Below are positions 1 through 60,364 of a stretch of DNA of 64,000 nt, in pieces. Made by a program: the position numbers and the translations under genes. The DNA lies in assembly GCA_028698995.1 (NCBI GenBank), contig JAQVVM010000017.1, positions 1,588 to 65,587 on the forward strand, written 5' to 3'. How positions within the stretch are numbered: the first letter of the stretch is position 1; each line of letters starts with the position of its first letter. The notes under the pieces are model-generated. The model saw only the letters and a program-made list of their open reading frames with translations, ran no database searches and was not told where the DNA came from. Source of the stretch: Bacteroidales bacterium (GTDB lineage: Bacteria; Bacteroidota; Bacteroidia; Bacteroidales; PXBB01).

Positions 1-3000
1 AAAAGAATTATAAATCTAGCCTATCAAGATAGTCAAAGCAGGTTTAAGACGATATTTGAATCGTCTCAAGATGCCTATATGTTGATTGACCAGAACAGAT
101 TTATTGACTGTAACAAAGCTACTTTAGAGATTTTTGCTTGTCCAACGAAGGAAGATTTTTGTTTAAAGCATCCTGCTGACTTTTCTCCTCCAACCCAACC
201 CGATGGAACTGAATCAGTGTTTTCATCGAATCAAAAAATCAAGGAAGCATTAAGCAAAGGAAATATATCTTTTGAATGGGTACACAAGAAGTTTAATACT
301 GATGAATTTTTCTTTACAGAAGTACATCTTAATGTTGTGAAATTAGAAGAGAAATCTATTCTCCAGGCTGTAGTAAGGGATATCAGCGAACGAAAAAGGA
401 ATGAAGAATACAAACAACTTTCATCTGATATCTTAGCTGTGCTCAATAGTTCTATGGATATTGACAGTAGTTTGATAAAAGTTACACAGCTTATTAAATT
501 AAAAACTCATGTGGATGCTATAGGGATACGTTTTAAAAAAAATGAAGACTTTCCATATCTTTATCATGATGGCTTTAACTCTGATTTTCTTGAAACAGAA
601 AATTCCCTTATAGCTTTATGCAGCGATGGTAGATTGAGTAAAAACACCAGATCAGGTCTTAATTATGAGTGTTTATGTGGATTGGTAGTATCAGGTAAGC
701 ATAAATATAATTCATCGATTTTTACGCCTTATGGTTCATTATGGGCAAATGATTTAAAATGTTGTATTGGAAAAACAAATATTAAAAAGATTGTAGAGAA
801 TCAGAGAAGTAATTGTATTAACAGTGGTTTTAATTCTTTCGCTCTCATTCCTATTGAAGGGGATAATTACCGATTAGGTCTTCTGCATCTTGCTCATAAA
901 AAGGAGAATTTTTTTAATAAAGATTTAATTGAACTAATTGAAAGGTTAAGTGCCAATATTGGAATAACGCTGATGCGCAAAGAGGCAACTGAGAGATTAA
1001 AATTTCAACTTGAATTTCAGAGTTTGGTGACACAGGTTTCGCGTTCTTTTATGAGTGCAAACAATAAATTCCTTGATAAGTATATTAAAAAAGTTCTGGA
1101 AAAGATAGGGGATTTTCTTAATGTTGACCGCAGTTATATTTACATGTTTTATGAAGGTCATATCATGGAAAATACGCTGGAATGGATTTTAAAGGAAGTA
1201 AAATTGCCTGCAAACAGGAAAAGGAAATATTCAATGGACAAGTTGCCATGGCTATGTGCCGAGGTTATGAAACAAAAACCTGTTTATATTGAAGATACCC
1301 ATAATTTACCAAAAAAGGCCGACCTTGAGAAGAAAATTTTCTTAAATCAGGGAATAAAGTCGATGCTTTGTTTGCCTTTAATGAATGAAAGAAATGTGAT
1401 AGGATTTCTTGGTTTTGATTCTGTGAAGAATTATAAGTACTGGTCTGAAAAGGAGATTTCATTTTTAGGAGTAATTGCAGAAGTCATTTCCAATGCTATA
1501 AATAGAAAAAAAGCAGAAGATGTATTAAAAGTTGCAAAGAAACAAGCTGAGAGTGCCAGTAAGGCAAAATCTGATTTTTTGTTTAATATGAGTCATGAAT
1601 TGCGAACACCTTTAAATTCAATAATCGGGTTCACAAATCTTTTGGATTACGCGGAATTAAAAGGTGTTCACGGCAATTATCTGAATTATATCGGGAATTC
1701 AGCTCATTCATTATTAAGCATAATAAACGTTATTCTTGATATTTCAAAATTTGAAACCGGAAAATTTAAACTGGAAAATTCAGAAACAGATATTGTCCAT
1801 TTACTTGGCAAAGTGACCGATAATATTAAACAGAATTTACAAGATAAGGAAGTTGAATTGCTTCTGAATATTCCCAACGATATTCCTCGTAAAGTTGTAA
1901 CTGATCCTAATAGATTATCTCAAGTGTTGATTAATCTTACCGGAAATGCCATTAAGTTTACAAATAAAGGAGAAATTGAAATCAGTCTTTCTTATGAGAA
2001 GTTGACAAACACTACCGGTGCTTTTACGTTCAGTGTACGAGATACAGGTATTGGAATCTCAACAAGTGCTCAAGAGAAAATTTTTGACTCTTTTTATCAA
2101 GTTGATACATCTGTAACAAGGAAATATGGCGGAACAGGTCTTGGGTTAGCCATATCCAATAGAATTGTAAAAAAGATGGGGGGGGAGCTTAAAATAAAAA
2201 GTTCTGTTGGTAAAGGTAGTACTTTTTATTTTACTGTAAAGACAGTATTTAAAGAAGAAGAGGAAGAAAATAATAAAACTATTTCAAGTAATATCAGGGT
2301 GTTGATAGTTGTTGATAATTTAAAAAATAGACAGATCATTAATAATATGCTTTTATATTGGCAGGTTAACACGCTACATGCCAAGAATTCTGAAGAAGCC
2401 TTGAGAATTTATAACAATCCAAGTACACCAAAAATTGATGCCGTTTTAGTTGATTTTCTTGTTGAAGGGGTTGATAGTACTGAGAACATTATTAAAATTA
2501 AAGAAAGTAAATATTTTGAGAATCATAAATCTGTGTTTTTTGTATTACATAAAGTTGGGGAGGAGAAAGCCATTTTCAACAAATTAGGATTGCTGAAACC
2601 AACAATTTTAATTGATAAGCCATTAAAGTCAGATAAGTTTTTTCTATATATAAAAAATCTTTCCTCCTCTGAGGAGGATATTGAATCGGCCGTTTCTAAG
2701 TCAATTGATTTTGAAAGTCAATTTTCAGGAGCACCAAAAATATTGGTTGTTGAAGATGTTGAAATTAATATGAAGTTAATAAAAGCCACTCTTAAACGTG
2801 TTATTCCTGAAGCCGATTTATTTGAAGCAGTTAATGGAAAAGAAGCCCTCGTACAATATAAAAATAACAAACCCGATATTATTTTTATGGATATTCAGAT
2901 GTCTGTAATGGATGGATTTACTGCCTCTAGAATAATTCGGGAAATTGAAGAAAAGTCTGATATAAGAACTCCAATTGTTGCCCTTACTGCACATGCTTTA

Positions 3001-3480
3001 AAAGGTGACAAGGAAAAATGTATTGCTGCTGGGATGGATGATTATATGTCTAAACCTTTCGAAATCCCTCACCTGAAAAATATCATTGATAAATATCTGT
3101 TTAAGAAAACAGTAAGAATATATAAACGAAGATATGAATTAAGCAAAGAACACTTTGATAAGGCAGATTATGTAAAACGTAACAGTGATGATAAAGAGTT
3201 GGCTCAGGAACTTTTTGTTTTATTCTTTGAAGGGATGAACAAATATACAAGTGGAATTAAGAATGCGATTGAGAATGGTAATCAAAAGGATTTGTTTTTT
3301 AATGCTCATTCTTTAAAAGGAGCTGCACGTCTTATTGCCTTTTATACGCTTGCAGATTACGCTTTGGAAATTGAAAACTCAGATATCAACGACAAAGATA
3401 AAATCAATAATTTACTTAATAAAATTTTCGATGAAGTTGTAATGCTGAAAGAATTGACAACTAACTTTTTAAATGAATAA
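1..3480 (+). CDS. Hybrid sensor histidine kinase / response regulator with C-terminal HPt domain (5' end cut by window edge)
   Basis: Frame 1 is open from nt 1 (KRIINLAYQDSQSRFKTIFESSQDAYMLID...) and runs straight into the track ORF at 79, so the first PAS domain starts upstream of the window. Domain order read from the translation: PAS; two GAF-like regions; HisKA H-box (FNMSHELRTPLNSIIGF); HATPase boxes (NLTGNAIKFT, DTGIGI, GGTGLGLAI); a degenerate receiver (VVDN...VLVDFLV); a canonical receiver (ILVVEDVEINM...IIFMDIQMSVMDG...MSKPF); HPt (NAHSLKGAARLI). Confidence 0.9.
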   Translation, partial: KRIINLAYQDSQSRFKTIFESSQDAYMLIDQNRFIDCNKATLEIFACPTKEDFCLKHPADFSPPTQPDGTESVFSSNQKIKEALSKGNISFEWVHKKFNTDEFFFTEVHLNVVKLEEKSILQAVVRDISERKRNEEYKQLSSDILAVLNSSMDIDSSLIKVTQLIKLKTHVDAIGIRFKKNEDFPYLYHDGFNSDFLETENSLIALCSDGRLSKNTRSGLNYECLCGLVVSGKHKYNSSIFTPYGSLWANDLKCCIGKTNIKKIVENQRSNCINSGFNSFALIPIEGDNYRLGLLHLAHKKENFFNKDLIELIERLSANIGITLMRKEATERLKFQLEFQSLVTQVSRSFMSANNKFLDKYIKKVLEKIGDFLNVDRSYIYMFYEGHIMENTLEWILKEVKLPANRKRKYSMDKLPWLCAEVMKQKPVYIEDTHNLPKKADLEKKIFLNQGIKSMLCLPLMNERNVIGFLGFDSVKNYKYWSEKEISFLGVIAEVISNAINRKKAEDVLKVAKKQAESASKAKSDFLFNMSHELRTPLNSIIGFTNLLDYAELKGVHGNYLNYIGNSAHSLLSIINVILDISKFETGKFKLENSETDIVHLLGKVTDNIKQNLQDKEVELLLNIPNDIPRKVVTDPNRLSQVLINLTGNAIKFTNKGEIEISLSYEKLTNTTGAFTFSVRDTGIGISTSAQEKIFDSFYQVDTSVTRKYGGTGLGLAISNRIVKKMGGELKIKSSVGKGSTFYFTVKTVFKEEEEENNKTISSNIRVLIVVDNLKNRQIINNMLLYWQVNTLHAKNSEEALRIYNNPSTPKIDAVLVDFLVEGVDSTENIIKIKESKYFENHKSVFFVLHKVGEEKAIFNKLGLLKPTILIDKPLKSDKFFLYIKNLSSSEEDIESAVSKSIDFESQFSGAPKILVVEDVEINMKLIKATLKRVIPEADLFEAVNGKEALVQYKNNKPDIIFMDIQMSVMDGFTASRIIREIEEKSDIRTPIVALTAHALKGDKEKCIAAGMDDYMSKPFEIPHLKNIIDKYLFKKTVRIYKRRYELSKEHFDKADYVKRNSDDKELAQELFVLFFEGMNKYTSGIKNAIENGNQKDLFFNAHSLKGAARLIAFYTLADYALEIENSDINDKDKINNLLNKIFDEVVMLKELTTNFLNE

Positions 3481-3525
3481 ATTATTATTAAAAGAAACTT
3501 TTATTTGAAATATAAAATGTAAAAA

Positions 3526-4731
3526 ATGAGAAAATACCTGTTCTATTTAGTCATTATTATAATTATCCTTATTCCTTTATGGATGTATCTTTTTTGGTTG
3601 TTAACACCAGAAAAGGAAATGAGAATTCTAATGCTTGACAAAACGATGTTGAACAAGAAAACACAGGAGCATATTTCTTTAAATTGGGTTCTGACAAATT
3701 CCAAATATGTGAAATGTAAAGATTCTTTATATGATCGTTTTAAGGATTATTACGGCTTTTTCCCAAAAATTAAATTTGATTATGATATAAAAGATTTTAA
3801 CCATCTTAATGACAGTATGCTGCGAGTTTTTGCAGATCAGTACGACATGGTCTATTATACTGATTTGTATGGAATCTACTCAATTGAATGGTTTGAAGAG
3901 AATAAGAAGTATTATCCATTGGGTTATTTTGATAATGAAAAAATCCCTGCACTTGAGCGTTCACGAAAAATTTATGGTGGCCTTACCCATAAAGAAATGG
4001 ATGTTTTGGAAATAATGAAAGAGCAAAAAAAGCTTATTATCACTGAGTTTAATATAATAGGTTCTCCAACTCCCTACAGAGTGAGGAAACGATTTCAGGA
4101 TGCTTTTGATATGCGTTGGTCGGGTTGGGTTGGAAGATACTTCAGTACTTTGGATACCAATATTAACAAAGAGATACCACATTGGTTAAAAAATAACTAT
4201 ATCATGCAACACGATAGTGTGTGGCCATTTACCAAATCTGGAATTGCATTTGTTAGAAATGATGACTGGATTGAGATACTTGAAAATGAGACGCATCTTA
4301 ATGTTGAAATACCAATGATTCATACGGGTGAAAAATTTCAGGATAAATATGGCTTACCTGCTGTTATGAAATATCCATTCTGGTTTGATATTATATATAC
4401 AGGAGATACCAATGAAATAGTTTCAGAGTATAGATTAAATCCAAATGAAGCTGGTGCGAAAATTTTAAGAAAATTTCGGATTCCTGTTATTTTTCCAGCT
4501 GTTATTGAACATGAGCAAAATTATCTGTTTCATTATTTTGCCGGAGATTTTTGCGATAACCCCGTAACGATGAAAATGTCGAGACTTCGCGGTATTCATT
4601 TGTTTAGTTGGCTTTTCTATGAAAAAAGTATAGATGAAAGATACAGCTTTTTCTGGCGCTTTTACCGTCCATTAGTGAAAACAATACTAAATTCATATTA
4701 TAATAATAGTATAAAACCCAAGAATAAATAA
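3526..4731 (+). CDS. Hypothetical N-terminally membrane-anchored protein, aromatic-rich, no domain recognised
   Basis: 401-aa ORF with one N-terminal hydrophobic helix (YLFYLVIIIIILIPLWMYLFWLL). It starts 45 nt after the kinase stop on the same strand and lies upstream of the polysaccharide locus. I recognise no catalytic motif. Confidence 0.65.
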   Translation: MRKYLFYLVIIIIILIPLWMYLFWLLTPEKEMRILMLDKTMLNKKTQEHISLNWVLTNSKYVKCKDSLYDRFKDYYGFFPKIKFDYDIKDFNHLNDSMLRVFADQYDMVYYTDLYGIYSIEWFEENKKYYPLGYFDNEKIPALERSRKIYGGLTHKEMDVLEIMKEQKKLIITEFNIIGSPTPYRVRKRFQDAFDMRWSGWVGRYFSTLDTNINKEIPHWLKNNYIMQHDSVWPFTKSGIAFVRNDDWIEILENETHLNVEIPMIHTGEKFQDKYGLPAVMKYPFWFDIIYTGDTNEIVSEYRLNPNEAGAKILRKFRIPVIFPAVIEHEQNYLFHYFAGDFCDNPVTMKMSRLRGIHLFSWLFYEKSIDERYSFFWRFYRPLVKTILNSYYNNSIKPKNK

Positions 4732-4923
4732 TTGCAATTTTGTATATGAATAGTAACTTAATAATTACAAATGATATTAAATTTAAAGATTCACTATATT
4801 TGTATATCAAAAAACTAAATGAATTAAACTGTAATTTTTTAGAAACAAATACTAAAATTGAACGTATAAAAAAAGTTTTAAATAGATTTTAAGAAAATCA
4901 TAACCATGTAAATACCCAATGCC

Positions 4924-5691
4924 ATGAGAATAATAATTGATAAAAACAAATCAAAAATCAAATCTTTCAATATCACGCCTACAGAAGATGGCTTTGAATT
5001 GAAAATGATTGTTAAAGATGATGATATTGCAACCAATAAAATGGATGTTTTTAGTAAAGTTCAGTTTGAATTTGCTGATGATGAAGAAACGCCAATACCT
5101 GTTGCAAAAAAGAAAACTCCAGTAGTTGAAGAAGAAGTTATTCCTCCAAAAAAAGTTGTTGCTGAAGAACCCGAAGAAGAAGATAGGCTTAACAAGTTTA
5201 ACAAGAGGGTTGAGGAATTAACGTCATCAATTATACCCGGGAACTTGAAAAGTAAGGAACAGGTTATGGAAACTAAAGGGAAATCCATACTTGTTGTTGA
5301 AGATGACTTAATGATCAACAAAGCCATTACAAACAAATTGACAAAAAGTGGGTATGTTGTTTATAGCGCCAAGGACGGAGAAGAAGGTATTGAAAAAATT
5401 CTTGACAACATGCCTGATTTAATAATTACAGACGTTATGATGCCCTATATTAATGGTCTTGAACTTATTGAATTTGTAAGAAAAAACCTCAGAACCAGTA
5501 TTCCTGTTATAGTTCTGTCTTCTCTTGAAGATGAAGAATCTATTTTAAAGTCTTTTAAAGTTGGTGCTGATGATTATTTGTCTAAACCATTCGGGCCAGA
5601 AGAATTGATACTCAGAGTAAGGCGTTTACTTATGTTTACTGATAATATGAGTAAAAATATAAATATTAATATCAACAAAGGCAAAGCGTAG
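4924..5691 (+). CDS. Single-domain response regulator (C-terminal receiver) with a novel short N-terminal domain and an acidic/Pro-rich linker; no DNA-binding output
   Basis: The receiver signature is present: ILVVEDDLMINK...DLIITDVMMPYINGLE...VIVLSSL...DDYLSKPF. The N-terminal ~115 aa comprise a ~55-aa unknown segment followed by PVAKKKTPVVEEEVIPPKKVVAEEPEEED. Confidence 0.85.
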   Translation: MRIIIDKNKSKIKSFNITPTEDGFELKMIVKDDDIATNKMDVFSKVQFEFADDEETPIPVAKKKTPVVEEEVIPPKKVVAEEPEEEDRLNKFNKRVEELTSSIIPGNLKSKEQVMETKGKSILVVEDDLMINKAITNKLTKSGYVVYSAKDGEEGIEKILDNMPDLIITDVMMPYINGLELIEFVRKNLRTSIPVIVLSSLEDEESILKSFKVGADDYLSKPFGPEELILRVRRLLMFTDNMSKNINININKGKA

Positions 5692-5720
5692 TTACTGTTT
5701 TTTGAAACAATATCTCTTTA

Positions 5721-7382
5721 ATGATGAACTTTATCCATAGGTTGTTTTTCATTTTTTCTTTGGTTTTATTATTGTTGCCTATTAGTGCTGAGGCTCAAAC
5801 AGACACGTTAAAACCAACCATTCTTGATGAGATTAAGGTTTTGATGCAATTGCCAAATACTGACAGTGCACTTAAATTATGTGAGAGTACATTGTCTGAA
5901 GATAGTGAACTCCATGATGTACGTTTGATGATGGCTGTCATATATTTACGTATGGATAGCCTCGATGATGCTCATAATGAATTGAGCTATATTACGTCAA
6001 GAAATTCGGATTATAAGGAGGCTTGGTTTCTTTTGGGTAACATCGCTTTATGGAAAAGCGATTATCAAATGGCTATAAGTAATTATTTTAAGGCATTTTC
6101 TTCTGAATATAATGAAGTCCTTACATTTAATAAAGCCATAGCACATTTTAAACTTAAAGATTATAACAGTGCTGAACCACTTATTGATACTGTTCTAGCA
6201 AAGAATCGCAACCATTCCGAAGCGCTTATTTTAAAAGATGAAATTATTCTTGCAAAAGCCAATGTAAAATTTGCAAATGGACAATTTGCAGAAGCACTTA
6301 AAGATTTCAAGTATTACGTTAATAAATACCCACTTGTTAACGATGCCCGTTTTAACCTGAGTCGCACTTATTATTCACTTAACTATGTTGACTCATCGCT
6401 GAATCATCTTGATACTATATTACAAAAGGACAGCATGAATTATGATGCATTGATGTATATTACCAATATTTATATGGGGAAAAGGGATTGGGATAATGCC
6501 CTTAAATACCATCAAAGACTTTTAAAACTTCATCCGGATGATCCTGCTTTTCTACTCCGTCTTGCTCAGATTCTTAAAGAAAAAGCCATGTATCAGGAAG
6601 CCTATAATGTCGCTGATACCCTTTATACTAGAAACAATGCCGATTCCAATGCTTTGGAACTTTTGTATGAATTATCACCCTATGTTTTTCGTAATACATT
6701 TACAGCCTCTTATAATGTAGATGCTTTTAAAGATTTTGGACCTTGGCATTTTATTTATATACAGTTATCAAGAAGCTATGATAAAAATATTTTTGTAGGA
6801 CGTGTCAACAGGGCAGAGAAAAGAGGTTTGGTAGGATTACAATTGGAAGGTGATTATTATAGGAAAATGAAAAATAAATCATATTTCTATGCAAATTTGG
6901 GTTTATCACGTGATTCATTGTTCCCCAGTTTAAGAATTGGGGCAGAATACTTTCATTACTTTAATCCAACTGTTGAAGGTTCTTTAGGATTCCGATATCT
7001 AGAGTTTGACACATTGAACCTTACAATTTTTACAGCCTCAATTGGAAAATATATAAACAAACTTTATGCTGGTTACAGACTTTATACTACACAGATTGAC
7101 AAAACATATTACAGTACCAATGTTTTTTCTGTAAGGGTTTTCGGGAAACATGACAATTTCGTCGGCATACAATATCTTTATGGTTTACTTCATGATGAAA
7201 ATGCATGGTTTAGTAATGATGTTTATAAACTCAAATCGAATACCATAAGGCTTGAATTTTTTAGGAGAATTAGTCCTGTGCTATCTTTTCAGATTAATGG
7301 CGCTTTTGCGACTGAAGAATATAAGCAAAACTTAAAGAGGCAGAAATACAGTGTTGAATTTATTATTAACAGATTATTTTAG
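5721..7382 (+). CDS. Outer-membrane export protein candidate: signal peptide, N-terminal TPR repeats, C-terminal YaiO-like beta-barrel
   Basis: Signal peptide FIFSLVLLLLPISAEAQ. The first ~300 aa are TPR-like helical repeats (AWFLLGNIALWKSDYQMAISNYFKA, ALKYHQRLLKLHPDD). The C-terminal ~230 aa show an alternating aromatic/Gly beta-strand pattern and end ...EFIINRLF, with the terminal aromatic typical of OM barrels. Confidence 0.7.
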   Translation: MMNFIHRLFFIFSLVLLLLPISAEAQTDTLKPTILDEIKVLMQLPNTDSALKLCESTLSEDSELHDVRLMMAVIYLRMDSLDDAHNELSYITSRNSDYKEAWFLLGNIALWKSDYQMAISNYFKAFSSEYNEVLTFNKAIAHFKLKDYNSAEPLIDTVLAKNRNHSEALILKDEIILAKANVKFANGQFAEALKDFKYYVNKYPLVNDARFNLSRTYYSLNYVDSSLNHLDTILQKDSMNYDALMYITNIYMGKRDWDNALKYHQRLLKLHPDDPAFLLRLAQILKEKAMYQEAYNVADTLYTRNNADSNALELLYELSPYVFRNTFTASYNVDAFKDFGPWHFIYIQLSRSYDKNIFVGRVNRAEKRGLVGLQLEGDYYRKMKNKSYFYANLGLSRDSLFPSLRIGAEYFHYFNPTVEGSLGFRYLEFDTLNLTIFTASIGKYINKLYAGYRLYTTQIDKTYYSTNVFSVRVFGKHDNFVGIQYLYGLLHDENAWFSNDVYKLKSNTIRLEFFRRISPVLSFQINGAFATEEYKQNLKRQKYSVEFIINRLF

Positions 7383-7387
7383 TTAAA

Positions 7388-8893
7388 ATGCTACTAAGCT
7401 TTTTTGAAAACATCGAATTACATAATTTTATTAATCTTTTTATAGCTTCTGTATTGTTTTATATAGTAGCATTCAGAGAAATTAATGAAGATAAAGTTTC
7501 AAAAACATATAACAAAGCCATTCTTTTTATTCTTTGCATTATTGTTCTTGAAGGCATTATAATTAATATTCTATATTATACAAAGGGAAGTTATCTTTCT
7601 GAGTACGGATTTGCAATATTGTTTATAAACAATTTGTACATTCTAATTGCACTTTTGTCCATCTGGATTTATTACTATAGAAGACTGTATGGAAAAAGAA
7701 GAAATTTTATTATTTATTCCATTATCGGTTTGTGCATTTTATTCATTGTAATAATTCTGATTTTAATAACAAGTGGCGTTCATTTTGGGAATTCTGATTC
7801 AACTGAATATGCTACTATTTTTAATTTTTTAGATTTGAAAATTAAAATTCTATTGACTTTAATTTTAATTTTTACTCTTCTTAGTGTGTCTTTTTTCTCA
7901 ATTATCTTATTGAGCCGTTTGGTAAGAGGATATGTTAATAAAAGAAATAATGAACATAAAAAATATTTATTTGAGCAATTAAGTCAGTATATATATGCCG
8001 AAAAAGAAACACGGGAATTAATTAAAAGTGATATTGAACTGTTTTTGAAGGGAGGTAAAGGGAGAAAACAACTTACTGTAGATGTGATAATCAACCTGAA
8101 GAAAAATATAAGTGGTGATTTAAGTAAAAATATTACTGATTTATACTATGCTTTGAAATTAGATGATTTTTCAATGAGAAAAATAAATAGTAGAAAGTGG
8201 TTCATAAGAGCTAAGGGTATTAGAGAAATTTCTGATATGGACATCGCTGATTTTGGGAATAATATCAGAGATTTTCTGGATAGCAAAAATGATATTTTAA
8301 GGGGAGAAGCAATTTTTGCAGTATCGAATCTGTTCGGTTCAAAGAATCCTGTTTGTTTCCTTTCTGATTACAAACAGAAGCTAAATTTATGGGAACAGAT
8401 AAATATTATTTTCAACTCAATAAAGAAACGTCAGTTAATTTCTAATCTTGATAACATAATTAAAAGTAAAAACGAATCTGTAAAAGTATTTGCTTTAAGA
8501 CTAGTGAAAATCAACAAATTATCCAATTATTATCCAAATGTGATTGATTTTATAAGGTACAGCCCTTCAGACTTGGTTAGGAGTGAATCTTATAAAGCAT
8601 TTGCTGCACTAAATATCTCTGATGATATTGAAATTCTTTTTGAGAAGTATTTTATGGAAACATATTCAAACAAAATTGAAATTTTAAAAGTGTTGGTTCA
8701 GATACCTGAAAATGCAAGTTTGTCGTTCCTTAAAAGTATTCTTTTAAATGAAAATGATTACAAAATACGCTTATTAATTTGTAAAGGCATAGAGGCATTA
8801 GGTTCACCGATGAATGTTTATTTACGCAATCTCATGCAAGAGAAGAGTTCTTTACGACCTTATATTTTACATGCAATAGATAAAAGATTATAA
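7388..8893 (+). CDS. Polytopic inner-membrane protein with cytoplasmic HEAT/armadillo-like repeat domain
   Basis: The N-terminal ~190 aa contain about 5-6 hydrophobic helices. The C-terminal ~300 aa have repeated helical units (WFIRAKGIREIS, DILRGEAIFAVSNL, SVKVFALRLV, DLVRSESYKAFAAL, DYKIRLLICKGIEALG) typical of HEAT repeats. The gene starts 6 nt after the preceding gene and ends 4 nt before the GT2 gene. Confidence 0.65.
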   Translation: MLLSFFENIELHNFINLFIASVLFYIVAFREINEDKVSKTYNKAILFILCIIVLEGIIINILYYTKGSYLSEYGFAILFINNLYILIALLSIWIYYYRRLYGKRRNFIIYSIIGLCILFIVIILILITSGVHFGNSDSTEYATIFNFLDLKIKILLTLILIFTLLSVSFFSIILLSRLVRGYVNKRNNEHKKYLFEQLSQYIYAEKETRELIKSDIELFLKGGKGRKQLTVDVIINLKKNISGDLSKNITDLYYALKLDDFSMRKINSRKWFIRAKGIREISDMDIADFGNNIRDFLDSKNDILRGEAIFAVSNLFGSKNPVCFLSDYKQKLNLWEQINIIFNSIKKRQLISNLDNIIKSKNESVKVFALRLVKINKLSNYYPNVIDFIRYSPSDLVRSESYKAFAALNISDDIEILFEKYFMETYSNKIEILKVLVQIPENASLSFLKSILLNENDYKIRLLICKGIEALGSPMNVYLRNLMQEKSSLRPYILHAIDKRL

Positions 8894-8897
8894 CAAT

Positions 8898-10364
8898 ATG
8901 CATATATTTTTTAGCTTTCTAAGATTTTTTTTCGAGAACCTCCTTTTTATTTATGGGGTATCTATAATGTTATCATATATTGTGCTTGCTTTTCTATCTG
9001 CAAGTGCATTAATAAGGTATAAAAAAAGAAACAGCTTCGTTGACTATAGTGCCCTACTCAAATCTCCAATTTGCCCTTCAATTTCCATTCTTGCTCCGGC
9101 ATATAATGAAAGTAAGACTATTATAGAAAATGTGCATTCTCTATTATCTCTGAATTACACTGCTTTTGAAGTTGTTTTGGTTAATGATGGAAGTACAGAT
9201 GACTCATTGCAGAAAATTATTAATGAATTTGAGCTTGAAAAGGTAAATTTTCTTGTTGATGAAAAAATCCCTACTCAACCTATAAAAGCTATTTACAAAT
9301 CACGCCGAGATGTTTTTTCAAAACTCATAGTTGTTGACAAAGAAAACGGAGGTAAATCAGACGCTTTAAATGCAGCAATCAATATTTCAAATAAAGATTA
9401 TTTTATAACTATTGACGTTGACTGTGTGATGGAACAGGATGCTTTAGTTAAAATGGCCAAACCCTTTATAGAACAAACTAAAAAACGTGTTATTGCTTCA
9501 GGGGGAGTTATCAGAGTTGCGAATTCATGCACTGTGAAAAATGGGAACCTTGTGGAAGTAAATGTACCCAAAAAATTATTACCCAAATTTCAAGTTCTTG
9601 AATACTTCAGGGCTTTTGTTTTGGGGCGTATGGCATGGAGTCGGCTTAATGGTCTTTTGCTCATATCCGGTGCCTTCGGTATGTTTGATAAGGAGATTGT
9701 AATTAAGGCAGGAGGTTATAGTACCAGAACCGTTGGAGAGGATATGGAGTTAGTAGTAAGAATGAGAAGGTATATGCACGAAAATAATATGGGTAAATAT
9801 ATTGTAGCTTTTATCCCTGACCCTCTTTGCTGGACAGAAGTTCCTGAAACACAGAAGGTTCTGGGACGCCAAAGAAATAGATGGACAAGGGGTACTATAG
9901 AAGTTCTTTTCCTTCATAAAAAGCTATTTCTTAATCCTTCCTATGGAAGATTAGGAGTCATTAGTTATCTTTTCTGGTTTCTTTTTGAATGGATGGCTCC
10001 ATTTGTTGAATTTTTCGGAATTATGTATTTTATTTTACTCATTTTAGTTGGGAAAGTTAACTTTCTCTTTTTTCTCCTCATGTTAGGTCTTATCTATACA
10101 TTTGCTATTTCCTTTTCCCTATGCGCCATTTTCTTTGAAGAAATTTATTTTCATCAGTATAAGAAAAAGGGAGATGCCTTTAAACTTGTATTTGCAGCCC
10201 TATTAGAACCATTTTTACACCATCCTGTACTTGTTTTTTATGCCCTTAAAGGTAACTATGACTTCTTTATTTTGAAAAGACATGGGTGGGGTGATATGAA
10301 AAGGGTAGGGTTTACTATTGCAGAGAAACGGAAAAAGAGGGATTCAGATGAAGATATTATTTAA
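8898..10364 (+). CDS. Membrane-embedded processive family-2 glycosyltransferase (PgaC/IcaA/NodC-like polysaccharide synthase)
   Basis: GT2 motifs appear in order: VLVNDGSTDDS, GGKSDALNAAIN, IDVDC (9411-9425), GAFGMFDKE, GEDMELVVRM, QRNRWTRG (9870-9893, the QxxRW motif). One to two TM helices precede the catalytic domain and three to four follow it. Confidence 0.85.
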   Translation: MHIFFSFLRFFFENLLFIYGVSIMLSYIVLAFLSASALIRYKKRNSFVDYSALLKSPICPSISILAPAYNESKTIIENVHSLLSLNYTAFEVVLVNDGSTDDSLQKIINEFELEKVNFLVDEKIPTQPIKAIYKSRRDVFSKLIVVDKENGGKSDALNAAINISNKDYFITIDVDCVMEQDALVKMAKPFIEQTKKRVIASGGVIRVANSCTVKNGNLVEVNVPKKLLPKFQVLEYFRAFVLGRMAWSRLNGLLLISGAFGMFDKEIVIKAGGYSTRTVGEDMELVVRMRRYMHENNMGKYIVAFIPDPLCWTEVPETQKVLGRQRNRWTRGTIEVLFLHKKLFLNPSYGRLGVISYLFWFLFEWMAPFVEFFGIMYFILLILVGKVNFLFFLLMLGLIYTFAISFSLCAIFFEEIYFHQYKKKGDAFKLVFAALLEPFLHHPVLVFYALKGNYDFFILKRHGWGDMKRVGFTIAEKRKKRDSDEDII

Positions 10365-10369
10365 TAATC

Positions 10370-11110
10370 ATGCTATTCCTTTCTAAAAGAAAACTTTCTC
10401 TTTGCTTTTTTTATTTTTTTGTTTCTTTTGCATACTCTCAAACTCCACAGTATATTTATTTTTCCGGCTTTAAATGGTTTTTAAAAGAGAACTCAACAGA
10501 ACAAATTGGACCCGGCCCAAATTTTTTTTCTGCTGCACCCGTGAATTTAAGTGTTGATCCCGAAGGACACTTAAACATGAGTTTAACAAAAAATAAAGAT
10601 AAGAAATGGTATTGCGCAGAATTGGTAACTGATTCAACTTTTGGTTATGGAACTTATATTTTTGAACTTGGGAATGTACCTTCCATTTTTAATAAAAACA
10701 TTGTGTTAGGTCTTTTTGTTTATGATTTCTACAAAACTCCTGCTCATAATGAAATTGATATTGAGTTTTCGAAGTGGGGTAGGAGGCAGAAAAATAATGT
10801 TCAGTTTGTGTTACATCAGGATACTAATTATTTTGATTCATTTCGATTTCATCAGAAAAATTTAAGAAATTCTACCCATACATTTTCTTGGTATCCTGAT
10901 AGTATTGTGTATAGAAGTTACATGTCAAGTATCTCTAATAATATAAGTGCTGAACCCTATATGGAATATGTTCTGAAAAATACAAATATTCCTGAGCCAT
11001 CAAACGAAAAAGTGCGTATTAACCTTTGGTTATACAAAGGCAGGAAACCTTTTAGAAAAAAACACACTGTGGTGATAAAAAGTTTCAAATTTATACCAAT
11101 GAGCTTATAA
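10370..11110 (+). CDS. Secreted GH16-like (concanavalin-fold) glycoside hydrolase/transglycosylase
   Basis: The protein has a signal peptide. GYGTYIFEL and LGLFVYD strands are followed by HNEIDIEFSKWG (E-I-D-I-E at 10751-10765), which matches the GH16 catalytic E-x-D-x-x-E pattern. The 246-aa size is typical of single-domain GH16 enzymes. Confidence 0.7.
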   Translation: MLFLSKRKLSLCFFYFFVSFAYSQTPQYIYFSGFKWFLKENSTEQIGPGPNFFSAAPVNLSVDPEGHLNMSLTKNKDKKWYCAELVTDSTFGYGTYIFELGNVPSIFNKNIVLGLFVYDFYKTPAHNEIDIEFSKWGRRQKNNVQFVLHQDTNYFDSFRFHQKNLRNSTHTFSWYPDSIVYRSYMSSISNNISAEPYMEYVLKNTNIPEPSNEKVRINLWLYKGRKPFRKKHTVVIKSFKFIPMSL

Positions 11111-11120
11111 GAAACTAAGA

Positions 11121-11711
11121 TTATTTGCTTTCTTTCAAAACCATATCTATGGTGATAGCACTTGAAAGAATAGCAATTTTATTTTCTTTATTTGAATAAT
11201 GGGGGTCTATACTAACATTATATTTATCAGCAGTTGTAAAAATCTCTTTCATGGCACCGGCCCATTTTTTTGTTATAACTCCAATCTGTGTGCCAGATGT
11301 GTCTTTAATAACAAAGTTCCATGCCTTCCAATCACCTGTAATTTCTGAAATCAGAACATCAGAATTGTTGAAAATTTTAAAGGTGGGTTTGAAAAATTTA
11401 AACTTTTGTTGTACTGTGCCTATTGTGTGACCTTCTGCATCCTGAATTTTTATTTTAGACATAAAAAATGTCCAGCCTCTTGAAATAGAAGCTTGTAATA
11501 CTTCATCAGAATCCTTTATTTCTAATAAGAAGGGAAGCATGGCTTTGTTAAGCAATAGGCGAAGAAGCTTTTGACCGGCTGTCAGTCTTTGTCTTATTGA
11601 ACCAATATTACGTGCATTTTCATCATAAATTTGATAACAATTTTCAAATTTAAACAGATTGACTTTTTCGTCAATAAAATAACTGTTTGTGTCAAAAAAA
11701 TTAGAACTCAT
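11121..11711 (-). CDS. Phospholipid scramblase-related / LURP-one-like (tubby-fold) protein
   Basis: 196 aa. The C-terminal block ITKKWAGAMKEIFTTADKYNVSI...AITIDMVLKE matches the conserved tail I recall for bacterial scramblase-related proteins. There is no signal peptide. Confidence 0.55.
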   Translation of the reverse strand: MSSNFFDTNSYFIDEKVNLFKFENCYQIYDENARNIGSIRQRLTAGQKLLRLLLNKAMLPFLLEIKDSDEVLQASISRGWTFFMSKIKIQDAEGHTIGTVQQKFKFFKPTFKIFNNSDVLISEITGDWKAWNFVIKDTSGTQIGVITKKWAGAMKEIFTTADKYNVSIDPHYSNKENKIAILSSAITIDMVLKESK

Positions 11712-11846
11712 GTTTATATATTTAATTATTAATTGGTCAAAAATAATCTAATAAATTGAATTGAAAAAATATTTATTATTTATAAGATTGAGTTTGACAA
11801 AATATAAAATAAAAATATCTTTAAGTCTGAAAATGTTATTAAGAAT

Positions 11847-14270
11847 TTAGAAAGAGTCATTTTTCTTAACAAATTTTCTAGTTAAAGTACCATTTTTTGT
11901 TTCAATTTGAATGGTATATATCCCACTTTCAAGAAAAGATACATCAATATAGTTTTGAACATTGCTTGAACTATGTACCAAACGTCCTACAATATCAAAT
12001 ATCTTTATGTTATCGGAATGAGATACACCATAAAAATTAAGATAATCAGTGACCGGATTTGGGAAAATATTTATGCTTTCAGAGTCATATTCAGCGATGT
12101 TTACTGTATTTGGGAGTTGTTTAATGTTAACATAAAAGAGCAAACCCGGGATTGATGTTGAAGAAATACTTAAAGTTCCCATTCGAACAATTGAAGACGG
12201 ATTTGCTGAAGCTGTAAGAGTTATAGTACCATTATTAGTACCTGTAGGTGTATTGACTGTGAGCCAGCTTGTATTACTGCTCACCTGCCATGATGTATTT
12301 GAACTGATATGAAGTAAAGCAATACTATTTTGTAGAGCACCAATCCATAAAGGATTTTCATCTGGATGCACATAATAAAGAGGCAGGTTATCATCCATCC
12401 AGTCAAGTCTTTCTGTAATCCAGTCCTTTAACCAGATTATTTCACTCTCAAAAGTATTTCCAATAAAATAGTTTGGCCAAGTGTAAGTCCCTAAAATAGG
12501 CCACTTTTTAAAATGTCTGACTTGGGCTTCATTTAGAACCAATACCTGCTCATCAACATAATTCAGTACTGAATCTGTATGTAAAAATGTTTGACGTATT
12601 TCCACCCATCGAGATTTTAACTCATTAAGAAAGTAGGGGTCAGACCAGAATTTTATCCACCATTTGGGGATACCACCGCCCTGTTCTTTATAAATGTATC
12701 TCCAGTTGTCAGTTCTCCATCCCTGGGCGTAGTCTGCATTTCCAAAGCCGAGGTTGAAATCCCATATCGGGCCGAAGTGTATGGTTGAGTCTTTATCATC
12801 CCTGTCTTTATAAAAAAAAGTGCTTAAAGAAAATGCGTCAATATTGTTTGTTACCTCAGTACAAATAACATAATCTACCAAAGAAGGCATATCAACCCAG
12901 TTTCGGTAACCCAGTATCGGGTCTTTATAATAGGAACTGTTAATAATATCCTCAAAATCAGTTATTTTGTTTTGGATATACTCAAACTGGGTTTGATGAA
13001 GTTCATCTTTTTTAGGATAATGGATAACAAATTCAATATTTCTGTAAGGAGAAACCCAATATTCTTCATCATCATCAATTCTATCTACTTTAAGGATGTA
13101 ACCTCCGGTTAACTGAACACCACTGGTATCAGATGCTTTTAATTTTGAAATGTCAACCCTTGAAGGACTGCGCTTTATCTTCTCCATCAGAACATATATG
13201 CCGTTATATTGATTATTGATAAACAATTCACAGAAACGTGTACCGGTAGTCCAATGTCCCATCTTGTTGCCTATGTCGTAAATGATATTATTTCGCAGCA
13301 TGGTTTTATCGGAATAAGGTCCGTAAAGGATCCAGTCTGAATCAGCAGGAAAACCAAGAATGGAAGCATCTATGTCGAGTGAATCATCATCCCATAGTTC
13401 AAACCCATATGATTTTTGAGGAAAATAATAGGCAGATGATGATCCTCGAATTTTAATGCCAATTTTTCCTGAGTAGTTATTAAATGGATCTGACAGGTAA
13501 TTACGATTACCGGTTCCATTATCAATAATCCCAATTTCGGCAAGAATTCTTTCCTCATCGGTTATTTCTGTACCATTGGTATTAATAAAAATTAAAGGTA
13601 AATTTGATGATACAAATGGTGTGTCAACCCAAAACCAAGAAGGAACAGGGTTATAAAAGCTGCCTGCAACATTTAATCCAACTGAAAAGAAAGGGATTAA
13701 TGACATATCAGAGGAACTGCTGCTGTAATTATTAAGTTGAATGGCAAGTACATTAGAACCGTTTTTCAAATTCCCTGAAAGTTGATTAGCTGATATCATA
13801 TACATTTCAGGTAAGCCCCCTTGGTAAATCTCTGCTTCATGATCGGGTTGGGCATAATCATCATGTGCTACAAATGAGCCGGGTGCTCCCATATTGTCTG
13901 AGCGTACTATTTCTGTACCATTAAGAAAGGCAATAAAACCATCATCATAGTCAATATGTAATACTGCTGATAAAATTGCAGAAGCATCTACTACTGAAAA
14001 ATGAGCCCTTATGTATATAGATGGGGTATAGACGGGAATATTTGTGGTGTCATCTCCATCACCGTAGCCAAATCCGCTTTTGCCTGTTAACCATGATGCA
14101 TCCGTGAAAGCTGTATCCATCCAGTTTAATGGAGGTTGATTTGTTCCTAGAAAATATTTCCAGTTTTGATTGTAATCAATTATTGTTTCCCAGTGATTGA
14201 TCTGGGCAGATGATGAATAGTTAAAAATCAATCCTAAGATAACTAAAAATAAGATTTGGTATTTTTTCAT
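11847..14270 (-). CDS. Secreted CotH-family (atypical kinase fold) protein with T9SS type-A C-terminal sorting domain
   Basis: The protein has a signal peptide. CotH-like blocks are present: PQKSYGFELWDDD, MLRNNIIYDIGNKMG, FCELFINNQYNGIYVLMEKIKR, FGPIWDFNLGFGNADY. The C-terminus (INIFPNPVTDYLNF...IKIFDIVGRLV...GIYTIQIETKNGTLTRKFVKK) is a typical Por secretion tail. Confidence 0.8.
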   Translation of the reverse strand: MKKYQILFLVILGLIFNYSSSAQINHWETIIDYNQNWKYFLGTNQPPLNWMDTAFTDASWLTGKSGFGYGDGDDTTNIPVYTPSIYIRAHFSVVDASAILSAVLHIDYDDGFIAFLNGTEIVRSDNMGAPGSFVAHDDYAQPDHEAEIYQGGLPEMYMISANQLSGNLKNGSNVLAIQLNNYSSSSSDMSLIPFFSVGLNVAGSFYNPVPSWFWVDTPFVSSNLPLIFINTNGTEITDEERILAEIGIIDNGTGNRNYLSDPFNNYSGKIGIKIRGSSSAYYFPQKSYGFELWDDDSLDIDASILGFPADSDWILYGPYSDKTMLRNNIIYDIGNKMGHWTTGTRFCELFINNQYNGIYVLMEKIKRSPSRVDISKLKASDTSGVQLTGGYILKVDRIDDDEEYWVSPYRNIEFVIHYPKKDELHQTQFEYIQNKITDFEDIINSSYYKDPILGYRNWVDMPSLVDYVICTEVTNNIDAFSLSTFFYKDRDDKDSTIHFGPIWDFNLGFGNADYAQGWRTDNWRYIYKEQGGGIPKWWIKFWSDPYFLNELKSRWVEIRQTFLHTDSVLNYVDEQVLVLNEAQVRHFKKWPILGTYTWPNYFIGNTFESEIIWLKDWITERLDWMDDNLPLYYVHPDENPLWIGALQNSIALLHISSNTSWQVSSNTSWLTVNTPTGTNNGTITLTASANPSSIVRMGTLSISSTSIPGLLFYVNIKQLPNTVNIAEYDSESINIFPNPVTDYLNFYGVSHSDNIKIFDIVGRLVHSSSNVQNYIDVSFLESGIYTIQIETKNGTLTRKFVKKNDSF

Positions 14271-14306
14271 GTTTTTACCATTAAAAATAAATGCTTTTAA
14301 TTGTGC

Positions 14307-16949: not shown

Positions 16950-17023
16950 ATGATGTAAATTTGATTATAAAATTAGTAAAAAAATAGTTAACCAAAAAGA
17001 AATTGCTAAAATAATGATATTAT

Positions 17024-17371
17024 TTAAAGAATTGTTTTTCTTTGGTGTGCAGCTAATCCTCTAACAACTAAATCATATGAATGGTCGATAAGTTGAAAAA
17101 CTGACTTTTTCTCGATATTACCTGATAAAATAATGGTATTCCAATGTTTTTTATTCATGTGAAAACCGGGAATGATACAGGAATAATGCTCTCTGAGTTC
17201 TATGGCTTTCTCAGGTTCACATTTTAAGTTCAGATGCATATTTCCGTCAAGGCTTAGTAAAGCAAAAATTTTATTATAAACTCTAAAAACTAATGTTGAG
17301 TCATCAAAAGGCATGTCTTCTGTTGTGAATTGCTTGCTTAGGCAATAAACTCTGATGTCTTCAATAATCAT
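17024..17371 (-). CDS. MmcQ/YjbR family protein
   Basis: 115 aa with PFDDSTLVFRVYNKIFALL...LNLKCEPEKAIELRE...PGFHMNKKHWNTI, the characteristic YjbR pattern. Confidence 0.8.
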   Translation of the reverse strand: MIIEDIRVYCLSKQFTTEDMPFDDSTLVFRVYNKIFALLSLDGNMHLNLKCEPEKAIELREHYSCIIPGFHMNKKHWNTIILSGNIEKKSVFQLIDHSYDLVVRGLAAHQRKTIL

Positions 17372-17374
17372 TAG

Positions 17375-18640
17375 TTATTTAATTACAAATTGGACTGTAT
17401 TTCTGGATTTTTGCTCTAGAAGGGTAGTTTTTTTATTGCAAATTCTTTCAATAGCCTGTTCATTATAGTGCCTTATTGTAACAAGATCCAGACTTGTGTT
17501 ATAATAAATTTTGTAGCTTGTTTTGAGATCTTTCAGTAGTAATGGTATCTTTTGTGGATCGTTATCAGAGCATATTGAAAAGCTAAGGGCAGAATTTTGC
17601 ATCAGATTAACTTTAATATCATACTTACTTAGAAGTTGGAAAATAGTGCTGATATTATGTTCAACAATAAATGAAAAATCATTGGGCATGATACTTATTA
17701 GAATCTGATTTTTTTTGAAAATAAAACTAGGTGTTTTTTGATTGCTGTTTTCAACATTGCCAATATAAGTGCCTTTATCTGAAGGACTTATAAATGATTT
17801 AACAAGTAAAGGAATGCCAGCATTTTGAAGGGGTTTTATGGTTTTTGGATGAATGACAGTAGCCCCGTAGTAAGCAAGTTCAATGGCGTCCGAATAGGTT
17901 AAACTGTCAATTTTTACACAGTCAGGCATTTCTTTGGGATCAGCGTTTAATACGCCTGGTACATCCTTCCATATCACAACTTCCTCAGCCTTAAGGCTGT
18001 ATCCGATAATAGCTGCGGTAAAGTCGGAACCTTCACGTCCCAGAGTGGTTGCAAAACCATGAGCTGATGATCCAATGAAGCCTTGTGTAACTGCAAATTT
18101 AAACCCTTCTTTAAGAATTAATTCCCACTTATGGGATACAGTCTCAGGTGTTTTATCCCAGTTTATACGGGCTTCTCTATATGTGGCATCAGTAATTATT
18201 ATTTGTCGAGCGTCAATAAATTTATTCGGTTGGCCAGTTTGATTAAGATAATGGCTTAATATTGTTGATGCTAACAGCTCTCCATAAGGAACAATACTAT
18301 CATAAACAAAGTTATAGTTCGGTGTAGAATCTTTTTTTAATAAAGTTAATAATGAATTGAAAAGGGATTCAATATGAGTGTAAACAAGATTGGTTTTGTC
18401 AGGGAAAAGTAATTCAATAATAGAGTAGTGAAAAACTTTTATATAATTGAATGCATCTCTTATAGAATTTTTATCATTAAAATAACAATTTGTCAGTTTC
18501 TCAAAAGCATTGGTCATTTTTCCCATGGCAGAGATAACAATAAATATGTCTTCTGTTTCAAACTGTTTAAGGATTGAAGCCACATTTTTTACACCTTCTG
18601 CATCTTTTGTAGAAGCGCCTCCAAATTTAAAAACTTTCAT
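17375..18640 (-). CDS. lysC: Aspartate kinase
   Basis: N-terminus MKVFKFGGAS...VISAMGKMTN, catalytic-domain block TTLGREGSDFTAAIIG, and a C-terminal ACT-like region. Length is 421 aa. Confidence 0.85.
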   Translation of the reverse strand: MKVFKFGGASTKDAEGVKNVASILKQFETEDIFIVISAMGKMTNAFEKLTNCYFNDKNSIRDAFNYIKVFHYSIIELLFPDKTNLVYTHIESLFNSLLTLLKKDSTPNYNFVYDSIVPYGELLASTILSHYLNQTGQPNKFIDARQIIITDATYREARINWDKTPETVSHKWELILKEGFKFAVTQGFIGSSAHGFATTLGREGSDFTAAIIGYSLKAEEVVIWKDVPGVLNADPKEMPDCVKIDSLTYSDAIELAYYGATVIHPKTIKPLQNAGIPLLVKSFISPSDKGTYIGNVENSNQKTPSFIFKKNQILISIMPNDFSFIVEHNISTIFQLLSKYDIKVNLMQNSALSFSICSDNDPQKIPLLLKDLKTSYKIYYNTSLDLVTIRHYNEQAIERICNKKTTLLEQKSRNTVQFVIK

Positions 18641-30768: not shown

Positions 30769-30770
30769 AT

Positions 30771-57064: not shown

Positions 57065-60364
<3,300 letters not shown>

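Follow-up and report, generated by a model that had tools for sequence, protein, structure and literature searches.

A REC–HEAT–GT2 locus with a TPR–YaiO outer-membrane protein in a Bacteroidales genome: a probable new family of synthase-dependent polysaccharide systems

Few synthase-dependent exopolysaccharide (EPS) systems are understood (those for cellulose, poly-N-acetylglucosamine (PNAG), alginate, Pel, Nfr, and a few glucans), and nearly all of them are activated by cyclic di-GMP (c-di-GMP). Glycosyltransferase family 2 (GT2) enzymes that carry the D, DxD, (T/G)ED, and QxxRW motifs together with flanking transmembrane (TM) helices polymerise and translocate their product at once, as BcsA, HAS, and PgaC do. 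Proteins combining tetratricopeptide repeats (TPRs) with a beta-barrel export synthase-made polymers and are a hallmark of synthase-dependent export. Bacteroidota largely lack c-di-GMP enzymes. Here, we describe a locus in a 64,000-nucleotide stretch of DNA from a Bacteroidales bacterium (contig JAQVVM010000017.1; "the window" below means this whole stretch) in which genes for a receiver-only response regulator (REC), a TPR/beta-barrel protein, a HEAT-repeat membrane protein, and a GT2 follow one another on the + strand. The system appears to be uncharacterised, and we consider it probable that it is a synthase-dependent polysaccharide export system whose family is itself new. A literature search found no paper describing a REC–HEAT–GT2–YaiO system, although its coverage was incomplete and a prior description is possible.

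The synthase, its partners, and a conserved core

A preliminary description of this DNA, made from the sequence alone, had proposed a synthase-dependent type of polysaccharide locus, and the two parts that define one, a PgaC-like membrane GT2 and a TPR/beta-barrel protein, were both confirmed. The GT2 (8898 to 10364, + strand; identified by Pfam and TIGR03937), the proposed polymerase and inner-membrane translocator, matches Pfam GT2 families, and all of the motifs first quoted for it are present in its translation (VNDGSTDDS, NGGKSDALN, IDVDC, SGAFGMF, GEDMEL, and QRNRWTRG). Its key residues (D97, D173/D175, E281/D282, and Q325-R326-x-R328-W329) are invariant in a 14-sequence alignment, and hydrophobic segments are predicted on both sides of the catalytic domain, in agreement with the flanking TM helices originally described. 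By its D, DxD, (T/G)ED, and QxxRW motifs and these predicted helices, the protein is a processive-type synthase. Its best NCBIfam match was PgaC_IcaA (TIGR03937), at 131.6 bits against a cutoff of 422.3, and the equivalog test therefore failed. The GT2 family profile matched Escherichia coli PgaC over nearly its full length (127 bits, residues 38 to 398), E. coli YaiP with 54 bits, and the catalytic/TM regions of BcsA and HAS1 weakly; no similarity to NfrB was found with either the single sequence or the profile (phmmer, hmmsearch). Homologues are named "PgaC" by Joint Genome Institute (JGI) pipelines.

The second defining protein (5721 to 7382, + strand; PF19413 and TIGR04390) has a signal peptide and is the proposed export porin at the outer membrane. 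Its combination of TPRs with a C-terminal beta-barrel was upheld by matches to multiple TPR families and by PF19413 (135.7 bits against a cutoff of 23.9, E value = 2.2e-39); TIGR04390 scored 84.7 bits against a cutoff of 32. The barrel, which is of the YaiO type, occupies residues ~320 to 553, and the C terminus reads ...NRLF. When compared by hhalign, the barrel profile matched mature E. coli YaiO over its full length (residues 23 to 257; 223 columns, E value = 1.2e-5) and matched neither the NfrA nor the PgaA barrel. The profile of the whole TPR–YaiO protein matched NfrA and PgaA in the TPR part only, and the PgaA family TIGR03939 likewise scored 18.7 bits against a cutoff of 366, in the TPR region only.

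We looked into how widely this arrangement recurs by a GT2 search at an E value of ≤1e-10, which returned at least 8000 homologue clusters at 90% identity; the best 120 homologues listed share 56 to 78% identity with the window protein. A scan of one genome per species gave 80 loci, whose ORFs (open reading frames) were all searched with jackhmmer before neighbours were counted, and 73 of these loci were informative in that they had at least 1.5 kb of sequence upstream of the GT2 gene. A HEAT-family gene lies directly upstream of the GT2 gene, commonly with a 4-nt overlap, in 73 of the 73, and because this gene order recurs in every informative locus it is more than chance. A REC protein is encoded within 6 kb of the GT2 gene in 68 of the 73, a TPR–YaiO protein within 8 kb in 52, and a kinase or Hpt gene within 8 kb in 32. 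The 80 loci include Bacteroidota (Flavobacterium, Chitinophaga, Polaribacter, Chryseobacterium, Daejeonella, and metagenome-assembled genomes (MAGs) of Bacteroides, Prevotella, and Odoribacter), Bacillota (Paenibacillus, Rossellomorea, Bacillus, and Clostridium), and a diverse set of Gemmatimonadota, Fibrobacterota, Myxococcota, Nitrospinota, Elusimicrobia, Terriglobia, Alphaproteobacteria, and Actinomycetota; a KSB1 genome (GCA_042576465), found by a separate genomic-context look-up, carries the system as well. Annotations of the family members go no further than "glycosyltransferase," "HEAT repeat protein," and "hypothetical protein."

These comparisons point to REC–HEAT–GT2 as the conserved core, to which diderm loci add the TPR–YaiO protein. 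Ten or more phyla share this core, the monoderm Bacillota and Actinomycetota among them, and the locus is therefore not the Bacteroidota-specific variant that it had been taken for. Nor did the expected synteny of a TPR-barrel/HEAT/GT2/GH16 quartet survive: a GH16 gene was found in 0 of the 80 genomic loci and only in the closest metagenomic relative. Co-conservation of the neighbours thus held for the HEAT gene upstream of the GT2 gene and failed for the GH16 gene, which is lineage specific.

The HEAT protein of the window (7388 to 8893, + strand; identified by a weak HEAT_2 match and by its homologues) is a predicted inner-membrane protein with 5 TM segments and an alpha-solenoid of ~320 aa. 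Its earlier assignment as a polytopic HEAT-repeat protein is clear from the homologues, in which HEAT_2 is significant at 32 to 78 bits, but the window protein itself matched weakly (16.7 bits against a cutoff of 27.7). The core of the family is one N-terminal TM helix plus ~320 residues. Across 51 single-TM homologues, the number of lysines and arginines around the TM helix averaged 1.0 before it and 4.9 after it, with the expected direction in 49 of 51, which by the positive-inside rule places the solenoid in the cytoplasm. The HEAT profile matched neither PgaD nor the other E. coli comparators tested, and PDB sequence searches with the protein gave no match. A word-index search for relatives recovered 2 proteins only, as the family is too divergent for it, and was replaced by the locus-based jackhmmer search. 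By gene order the HEAT protein is the obligate partner of the GT2, and we propose for it a role as co-synthase and signal adaptor. In a Fibrobacterota MAG, the HEAT partner is a 1032-aa protein (L051:233-3331) whose N-terminal extracytoplasmic part weakly matches the GH42 trimerisation (GATase-like) domain and carbohydrate esterase family 4 (CE4); it may be another fusion that ties periplasmic processing domains to the HEAT co-synthase.

The receiver protein (4924 to 5691, + strand; REC domain at residues 122 to 232) matched PF00072 with 96 bits, and its ORF encodes no output domain, as the term "REC-only" had implied. D127, D170, and K221 are conserved in 91 to 98% of 62 family members (D170 in 95% and K221 in 98%). 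For the N-terminal ~118 residues, none of 61 relatives offers a counterpart, and the true start may be M115, or the N terminus may be lineage specific. The first ~114 codons (4924 to 5266) encode an acidic stretch rich in Pro, Glu, and Lys, which is either a lineage-specific disordered extension or a non-coding leader before M115. Receivers of the Bacteroidota loci are REC-only proteins of ~120 aa, sometimes encoded alongside REC-Hpt proteins (L001 and L004) or Hpt proteins (L003 and L085, the latter having a GAF hybrid kinase and a separate Hpt). The REC position is taken by an Hpt-REC-GGDEF-REC protein in Rossellomorea (L060) and by an Hpt-REC-REC protein in a Myxococcota MAG.

Upstream of the locus as first delimited, positions 79 to 3480 (+ strand) encode a hybrid histidine kinase (GAF–HisKA–HATPase_c–REC–Hpt by Pfam) in which no hydrophobic segments were predicted, suggesting a cytoplasmic protein; we propose it as the signal input and phosphodonor for the receiver. 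The parts of a phosphorelay are all present by domain search: HisKA/HATPase, Hpt, and a receiver in which both the Asp and the Lys are conserved. PilZ, GGDEF, MshEN, CE4, BcsB, and GH8 had been listed as absent, and Pfam and NCBIfam found none of them in any ORF from 79 to 26351. The claim that the system has no c-di-GMP module holds for the Bacteroidota, although not for the Rossellomorea homologue with its GGDEF domain at the REC position.

Extracytoplasmic proteins and flanking genes

The first gene of the locus (3526 to 4731, + strand) encodes a 401-aa protein, called unk401 here, for which no Pfam, NCBIfam, or PDB sequence match was found. Its AlphaFold2 (AF2) model (pLDDT 88) has an N-terminal TM helix followed by an alpha/beta domain, which describes an anchored protein with a predicted extracytoplasmic domain. 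The best fold match was weak (ThuA-like/class-I GATase-like, E value = 4e-4, TM-score 0.34 to 0.5), and there is no invariant Cys; we claim no enzymatic function. Homologues (E values of 2e-37 to 6e-107) occur in KSB1 and in several Bacteroidota loci, with one at 41% identity in L085, and a homologue is fused to the GT2 in L076. In Bacillaceae, a "hypothetical protein" of 1077 aa with 842 detected relatives has unk401 as its N-terminal half, and the C-terminal half of this fusion matches positions 14331 to 16196 (- strand) of the window at 1e-97, inside the ORF at 14307 to 16949.

A first metagenome scan, with a 9-sequence unk401 alignment, offered no usable conserved stretch. A reciprocal scan of metagenome contigs from a 6-sequence unk401 alignment yielded 43 loci, all non-redundant and 9 kb or longer, with the TPR–YaiO protein in 41 of them (directly adjacent and on the same strand in 35), the GT2 in 35, the HEAT protein in 33, and REC in 34. 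This reciprocal linkage indicates that unk401 is a genuine component whose closest link is to the porin. The anchored 401-aa protein can therefore be kept as a real part of the locus, given this linkage and its fusions to the GT2 and to the protein described next.

The Bacillaceae fusion also ties the ORF at 14307 to 16949 (- strand) to the system. Its product, unk880 (880 aa), has a signal or anchor sequence, Ig-like N-terminal domains, a GH-A-like (beta/alpha)8 domain, and a C-terminal beta-sandwich, as judged from AF2, Foldseek, and the fusion. No Pfam or PDB match and no solved glycoside hydrolase (GH) was found by sequence or profile. The whole AF2 model has a mean pLDDT of 59, with the region from 280 to 600 mostly at 80 to 90 and folded as a (beta/alpha)8 barrel; residues 26 to 234 of the model were discarded, as the alignment had forced them onto the unrelated unk401 half of the fusions. 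Two glutamates are invariant, E393 after beta4 (strand 385 to 391) and E543 at the end of beta7 (strand 539 to 544), and clan GH-A enzymes use Glu after beta4 and beta7. The Foldseek matches were led by a GH157 endo-beta-1,3-glucanase (4.5e-10), then a GH158 laminarinase, GH5_4 beta-1,3/1,4-glucanases, GH2, and GH17, and the top matches were all GH-A members. The protein thus models as a clan GH-A-like glycosidase and would be the conserved hydrolase of the window's subtype. Homologues are present in L003, L017, L019, L048-L050, L052, L062, and L084, with 63% identity to the window protein in the last. On a neighbour-joining tree, the GT2 of the window falls in this unk401/unk880 subtype.

The gene after the GT2 gene (10370 to 11110, + strand) encodes an enzyme with a signal peptide that is predicted to be secreted and that had been called GH16-like. 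PF00722 fell just short of threshold (21.6 bits against a cutoff of 22), but the E128-x-D130-x-E132 motif (EIDIE) is invariant in 39 homologues, and the protein is lichenase-like: it aligned with the Bacillus lichenase 1gbg at an E value of 8e-5, with the EIDIEF motif in register. GH16 enzymes use ExDxE. PF00722 was matched in 15 of the 39 homologues (best E value of 3e-9), and the family has 3025 representative relatives. No homologue was found by jackhmmer in the 80 genomic loci, and GH16 was rejected as a core part on that count; the sole recurrence after a GT2 gene is in the closest relative, the metagenomic locus L084 (46% identity).

Between the GH16-like gene and unk880 lies a gene for a CotH-kinase-like protein (11847 to 14270, - strand; Pfam CotH 177 bits) with a BACON domain and a type IX secretion system (T9SS) C-terminal sorting domain (Por_Secre_tail). 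The CotH–unk880 pair is kept in L084 and was not seen in the other loci, a weak link by which the CotH gene is a possible accessory. A second CotH-kinase protein is encoded at 43026 to 45596 (- strand), with a T9SS sorting domain, Fn3_assoc, CHB_HEX_C, and LTD; we know of no role in Bacteroidota for CotH kinases that are secreted to the surface. A gene for a protein of 196 aa with a Scramblase domain of the eukaryotic type (11121 to 11711, - strand; PF03803, 80 bits) is convergent with the GH16-like gene; it was rejected as a part as it is not at the corresponding position in L084.

T9SS-related genes abound elsewhere in the window and confirm its Bacteroidota origin. An ORF of 2483 aa (46930 to 54381, + strand) is followed by a PorP/SprF gene (54398 to 55441, + strand), and further T9SS-related ORFs lie at 29752 to 30843 (-), 30771 to 32471 (-), 39414 to 42851 (-), and 57080 to 60364 (+). 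These include a second PorP/SprF beside a PKD/CHU_C protein, a T9SS cargo protein of the PNGase-F-like/Laminin_G_3 kind, and a collagen-repeat protein of 1094 aa whose C-terminal domain is Lcl.

The six ORFs from 3526 to 11110 all lie on the + strand, as confirmed by the ORF listing, and the tight packing noted earlier applies to the last five (4924 to 11110), which are separated by 29, 5, 4, and 5 nt. A single operon is safest for REC through GH16, as a 192-nt gap parts the unk401 gene from REC. This gap holds a single copy of the TAnnTTTG motif (at 4795), so that the genes for unk401 and the kinase may form a transcript apart from REC–GH16; with a chance expectation of ~13% in a gap of this length, the motif is a hint only. 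Promoter-like sites of the sigma-70 type (79, against 63.8 ± 8.9 in shuffled sequence) and terminator-like sites (4, against 4.4) were near the shuffled expectation, and Rfam matched no RNA element in positions 1 to 17500. The boundaries first drawn, 3526 to 11110, are right for the genes they enclose, but the locus reaches further, to the kinase at 79 to 3480, the hydrolase at 14307 to 16949, and possibly the CotH gene.

Other members of the family are built differently. The monoderm form (L060 Rossellomorea and L074 Bacillus) has Hpt-REC-GGDEF-REC, HEAT, and GT2 proteins, the unk401~GH-A fusion, a REC-only protein, and a hybrid kinase, and it appears to be entirely uncharacterised. Its ~1077-aa fusion protein has no Pfam match, and the Bacillaceae relatives, which include Geobacillus, Anoxybacillus, Cytobacillus, and Lysinibacillus, are all "hypothetical." Sister subtypes replace or supplement the unk401 and hydrolase parts with an LtaS/OpgB-like transferase or with DUF4838 proteins. 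The former is a polytopic alkaline-phosphatase-family enzyme (PF00884), often with its own C-terminal TPR, that is fused to the GT2 C terminus (L013, L024, L033, L136, and L167) or encoded beside the GT2 by a free gene (L005, L015, L026, L085, and many metagenome loci). By analogy with BcsG acting on cellulose, this partner suggests that the polymer is decorated with groups of the phosphoglycerol or phosphoethanolamine type. The DUF4838 subtype comprises L038, L039, L045, L046, and L054; in the first four, a ~1000-aa TPR–YaiO protein is followed by the DUF4838 protein, and L038 and L039 have the GT2 as two tandem copies.

A proposed phosphorylation-gated mechanism

The explanation that we favour, and towards which we lean as a whole, machine and mechanism together, is the following. 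The GAF hybrid kinase would pass phosphate by way of its own REC domain and then its Hpt to the stand-alone receiver, at Asp170, and the phosphorylated receiver would dock on the cytoplasmic HEAT solenoid of the co-synthase. Docking would switch on the GT2, which would polymerise a UDP-sugar and thread the chain through its own channel. In the periplasm or at the surface, unk401, unk880, and the GH16-like enzyme may handle or trim the chain, and the TPR/YaiO protein would carry it across the outer membrane. Phosphorylation would thereby take the post-translational role that c-di-GMP has in BcsA, PgaCD, Alg44, PelD, and NfrB. Stand-alone receivers act through protein–protein contacts, but the particular step in which REC acts on HEAT to gate the synthase is put forward tentatively, at somewhat less than an even chance. 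A more sweeping version strikes us as doubtful: that this is a pan-bacterial, ancient class of synthase in which phosphorylated REC gates the GT2 directly by way of the HEAT adaptor, with two new extracytoplasmic families, a TPR–YaiO class of porin, and a new beta-glucan-type polymer. On this version, a c-di-GMP-independent post-translational switch would explain matrix control in Bacteroidota.

The receiver might instead not be a direct gate at all. It could be a phosphate sink or connector, as stand-alone receivers often are, or control transcription or another target, with HEAT as a structural co-synthase or stabiliser like BcsB or PgaD. Of the 73 loci, 5 have no REC gene within 6 kb, no conserved patch on HEAT can be named, and in Rossellomorea, where a GGDEF domain is present, the true activator could be a nucleotide; all three would fit this reading. 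We nevertheless judge it unlikely, for the order REC–HEAT–GT2 is kept across phyla with wholly different other neighbours, the Bacteroidota loci lack any DNA-binding output, and the HEAT solenoid, being cytoplasmic, is within reach of a receiver.

Several observations weigh against gated synthesis and export as we have set them out. The proposed contacts of HEAT with REC and with the GT2 are drawn solely from gene order. Conservation in the HEAT family is poor, with 3 columns at ≥70%, and for that reason no binding site or interface can be named. In Rossellomorea, the GGDEF domain lies within the REC protein itself (L060), where c-di-GMP may yet have a part. At ~230 aa and roughly 12 to 14 strands by a crude amphipathicity count, the YaiO barrel is small, whereas the PgaA, BcsC, and AlgE barrels have 16 to 18 strands, and we know of no YaiO protein with a demonstrated role in polymer export. 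Among the hydrolases, the unk880 model is of low mean confidence and its fold match leaves specificity unfixed, and the GH16-like enzyme is not conserved and is a lineage-specific accessory. Finally, the clues to the polymer conflict, a PgaC-like synthase standing against beta-glucanase-like hydrolases, and there are weak CE4 matches in neighbours in L003 and L051.

The small barrel and its putative export role, together with the frequent LtaS/OpgB-like homologues of the sister loci, would suit a GT2 that makes a periplasmic or envelope glycan (an OPG-like glucan or a glycolipid), with the TPR/YaiO protein serving some other purpose at the outer membrane. We hold this to be highly improbable: the topology and motifs of the GT2 are those of channel-forming synthases, TPRs plus a barrel are the hallmark of export, the partner hydrolases have signal peptides or T9SS sorting domains that direct them outside the cytoplasm or to the surface, and the system is also found in monoderms, which have no periplasmic glucans.

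The conflict over the polymer bears on another explanation, a divergent PNAG system of the Pga/Ica type in which the GT2 makes poly-beta-1,6-GlcNAc, HEAT replaces PgaD/IcaD, and TPR/YaiO replaces PgaA. A hexosamine polymer is what the PgaC-like synthase hints at, and the TIGR03937 match, the near-full-length profile match to PgaC, and the JGI naming all lean this way, as do the weak Polysacc_deac_1 (CE4) matches, one in a T9SS protein beside L003 and one in the HEAT protein of L051, in its N-terminal part. Hints of a beta-glucan product come instead from the GH16-like enzyme and from the predicted fold of unk880, which resembles GH157/158: the window's hydrolases, GH-A-like and GH16-like, have beta-glucanases as their nearest structures. 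Moreover, the PgaC_IcaA and PgaA scores lie far under their cutoffs, the window has no PgaB (CE4/GH153) or PgaD, and sister loci carry LtaS/OpgB-like transferases, which to our knowledge are not known from PNAG systems. We therefore regard a PNAG system as quite unlikely and keep to a new-family synthase-dependent polysaccharide system as the probable reading.

The family is very large and takes in gut-associated MAGs of Bacteroides, Prevotella, and Odoribacter, Flavobacteriia and Chitinophagia from soil and marine habitats, and Bacillaceae that are thermophilic, and as many cultured strains carry the system, it is experimentally accessible. If the favoured explanation is true, it would supply a phosphorylation-gated synthase, a new type of co-synthase, a function for the orphan YaiO barrel family, and two new families of carbohydrate-active proteins, as well as a route to the matrix polymer in phyla with poorly known biofilm biology.

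Comparison with characterised systems

The preliminary description had found a parts list that matches no characterised system. This stands for Pga, Nfr, and Bcs as tested here, with a core that is wider than claimed. Identity with Pga or Nfr was ruled out by family cutoffs, by phmmer and hmmsearch, and by the hhalign barrel test.

Like Nfr (NfrB–NfrA–YbcH, which makes poly-ManNAc in E. coli in a c-di-GMP-dependent manner), the locus has a GT2, a TPR/barrel protein, and an uncharacterised periplasmic accessory protein. Unlike Nfr, its GT2 has no similarity to NfrB, it has no MshEN, and its likeness to NfrA is confined to the TPR part. In phmmer comparisons, unk401 and unk880 matched none of PgaB, PgaD, and YbcH. 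The comparison with Bcs was made by Pfam and NCBIfam only. The locus shares with Bcs the processive GT2 motifs, a dedicated hydrolase, and a TPR porin, and sister loci, though not the window, carry an alkaline-phosphatase-superfamily transferase in the role of BcsG. It differs in having no PilZ, BcsB, or GH8, in its GH-A-like and GH16-like hydrolases, and in a transferase that is LtaS/OpgB-like.

The curdlan (CrdASC) and mixed-linkage beta-glucan (BgsBA) systems are possible analogues as to product, through the GH16-like ExDxE motif and the unk880 fold. CrdS and BgsA, however, are BcsA-like, whereas the window GT2 is PgaC-like, and we know of no HEAT, REC, or YaiO parts in either system. The sole known case of a YaiO-family barrel beside a GT2 is the E. 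coli cluster yaiO–yaiX–yaiP–yaiS (L089; K-12 positions 380069 to 384616), which encodes the barrel, an acyltransferase disrupted by IS2, a GT2, and a deacetylase. Its YaiO has no TPRs, and it has the acyltransferase and deacetylase and no HEAT or REC gene. The cluster looks like a decayed small polysaccharide locus; a literature search found nothing on its function.

Pga/Ica has the closest characterised synthase, with the same TM-flanked GT2 topology, an obligate small partner gene beside the synthase, and a TPR plus beta-barrel protein at the outer membrane, as here. No phmmer or hmmsearch match was found between the window proteins or the family profiles and E. coli PgaB or PgaD, and no CE4/GH153 PgaB was found among the window ORFs. 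Unlike in Pga, the HEAT partner is unrelated to PgaD, the barrel is of the YaiO and not the PgaA type, and the GT2 lies far under the equivalog cutoff. Moreover, Pga takes its input as c-di-GMP bound at the PgaC–PgaD interface, whereas in the system described here the input is proposed to come through a REC phosphorelay.

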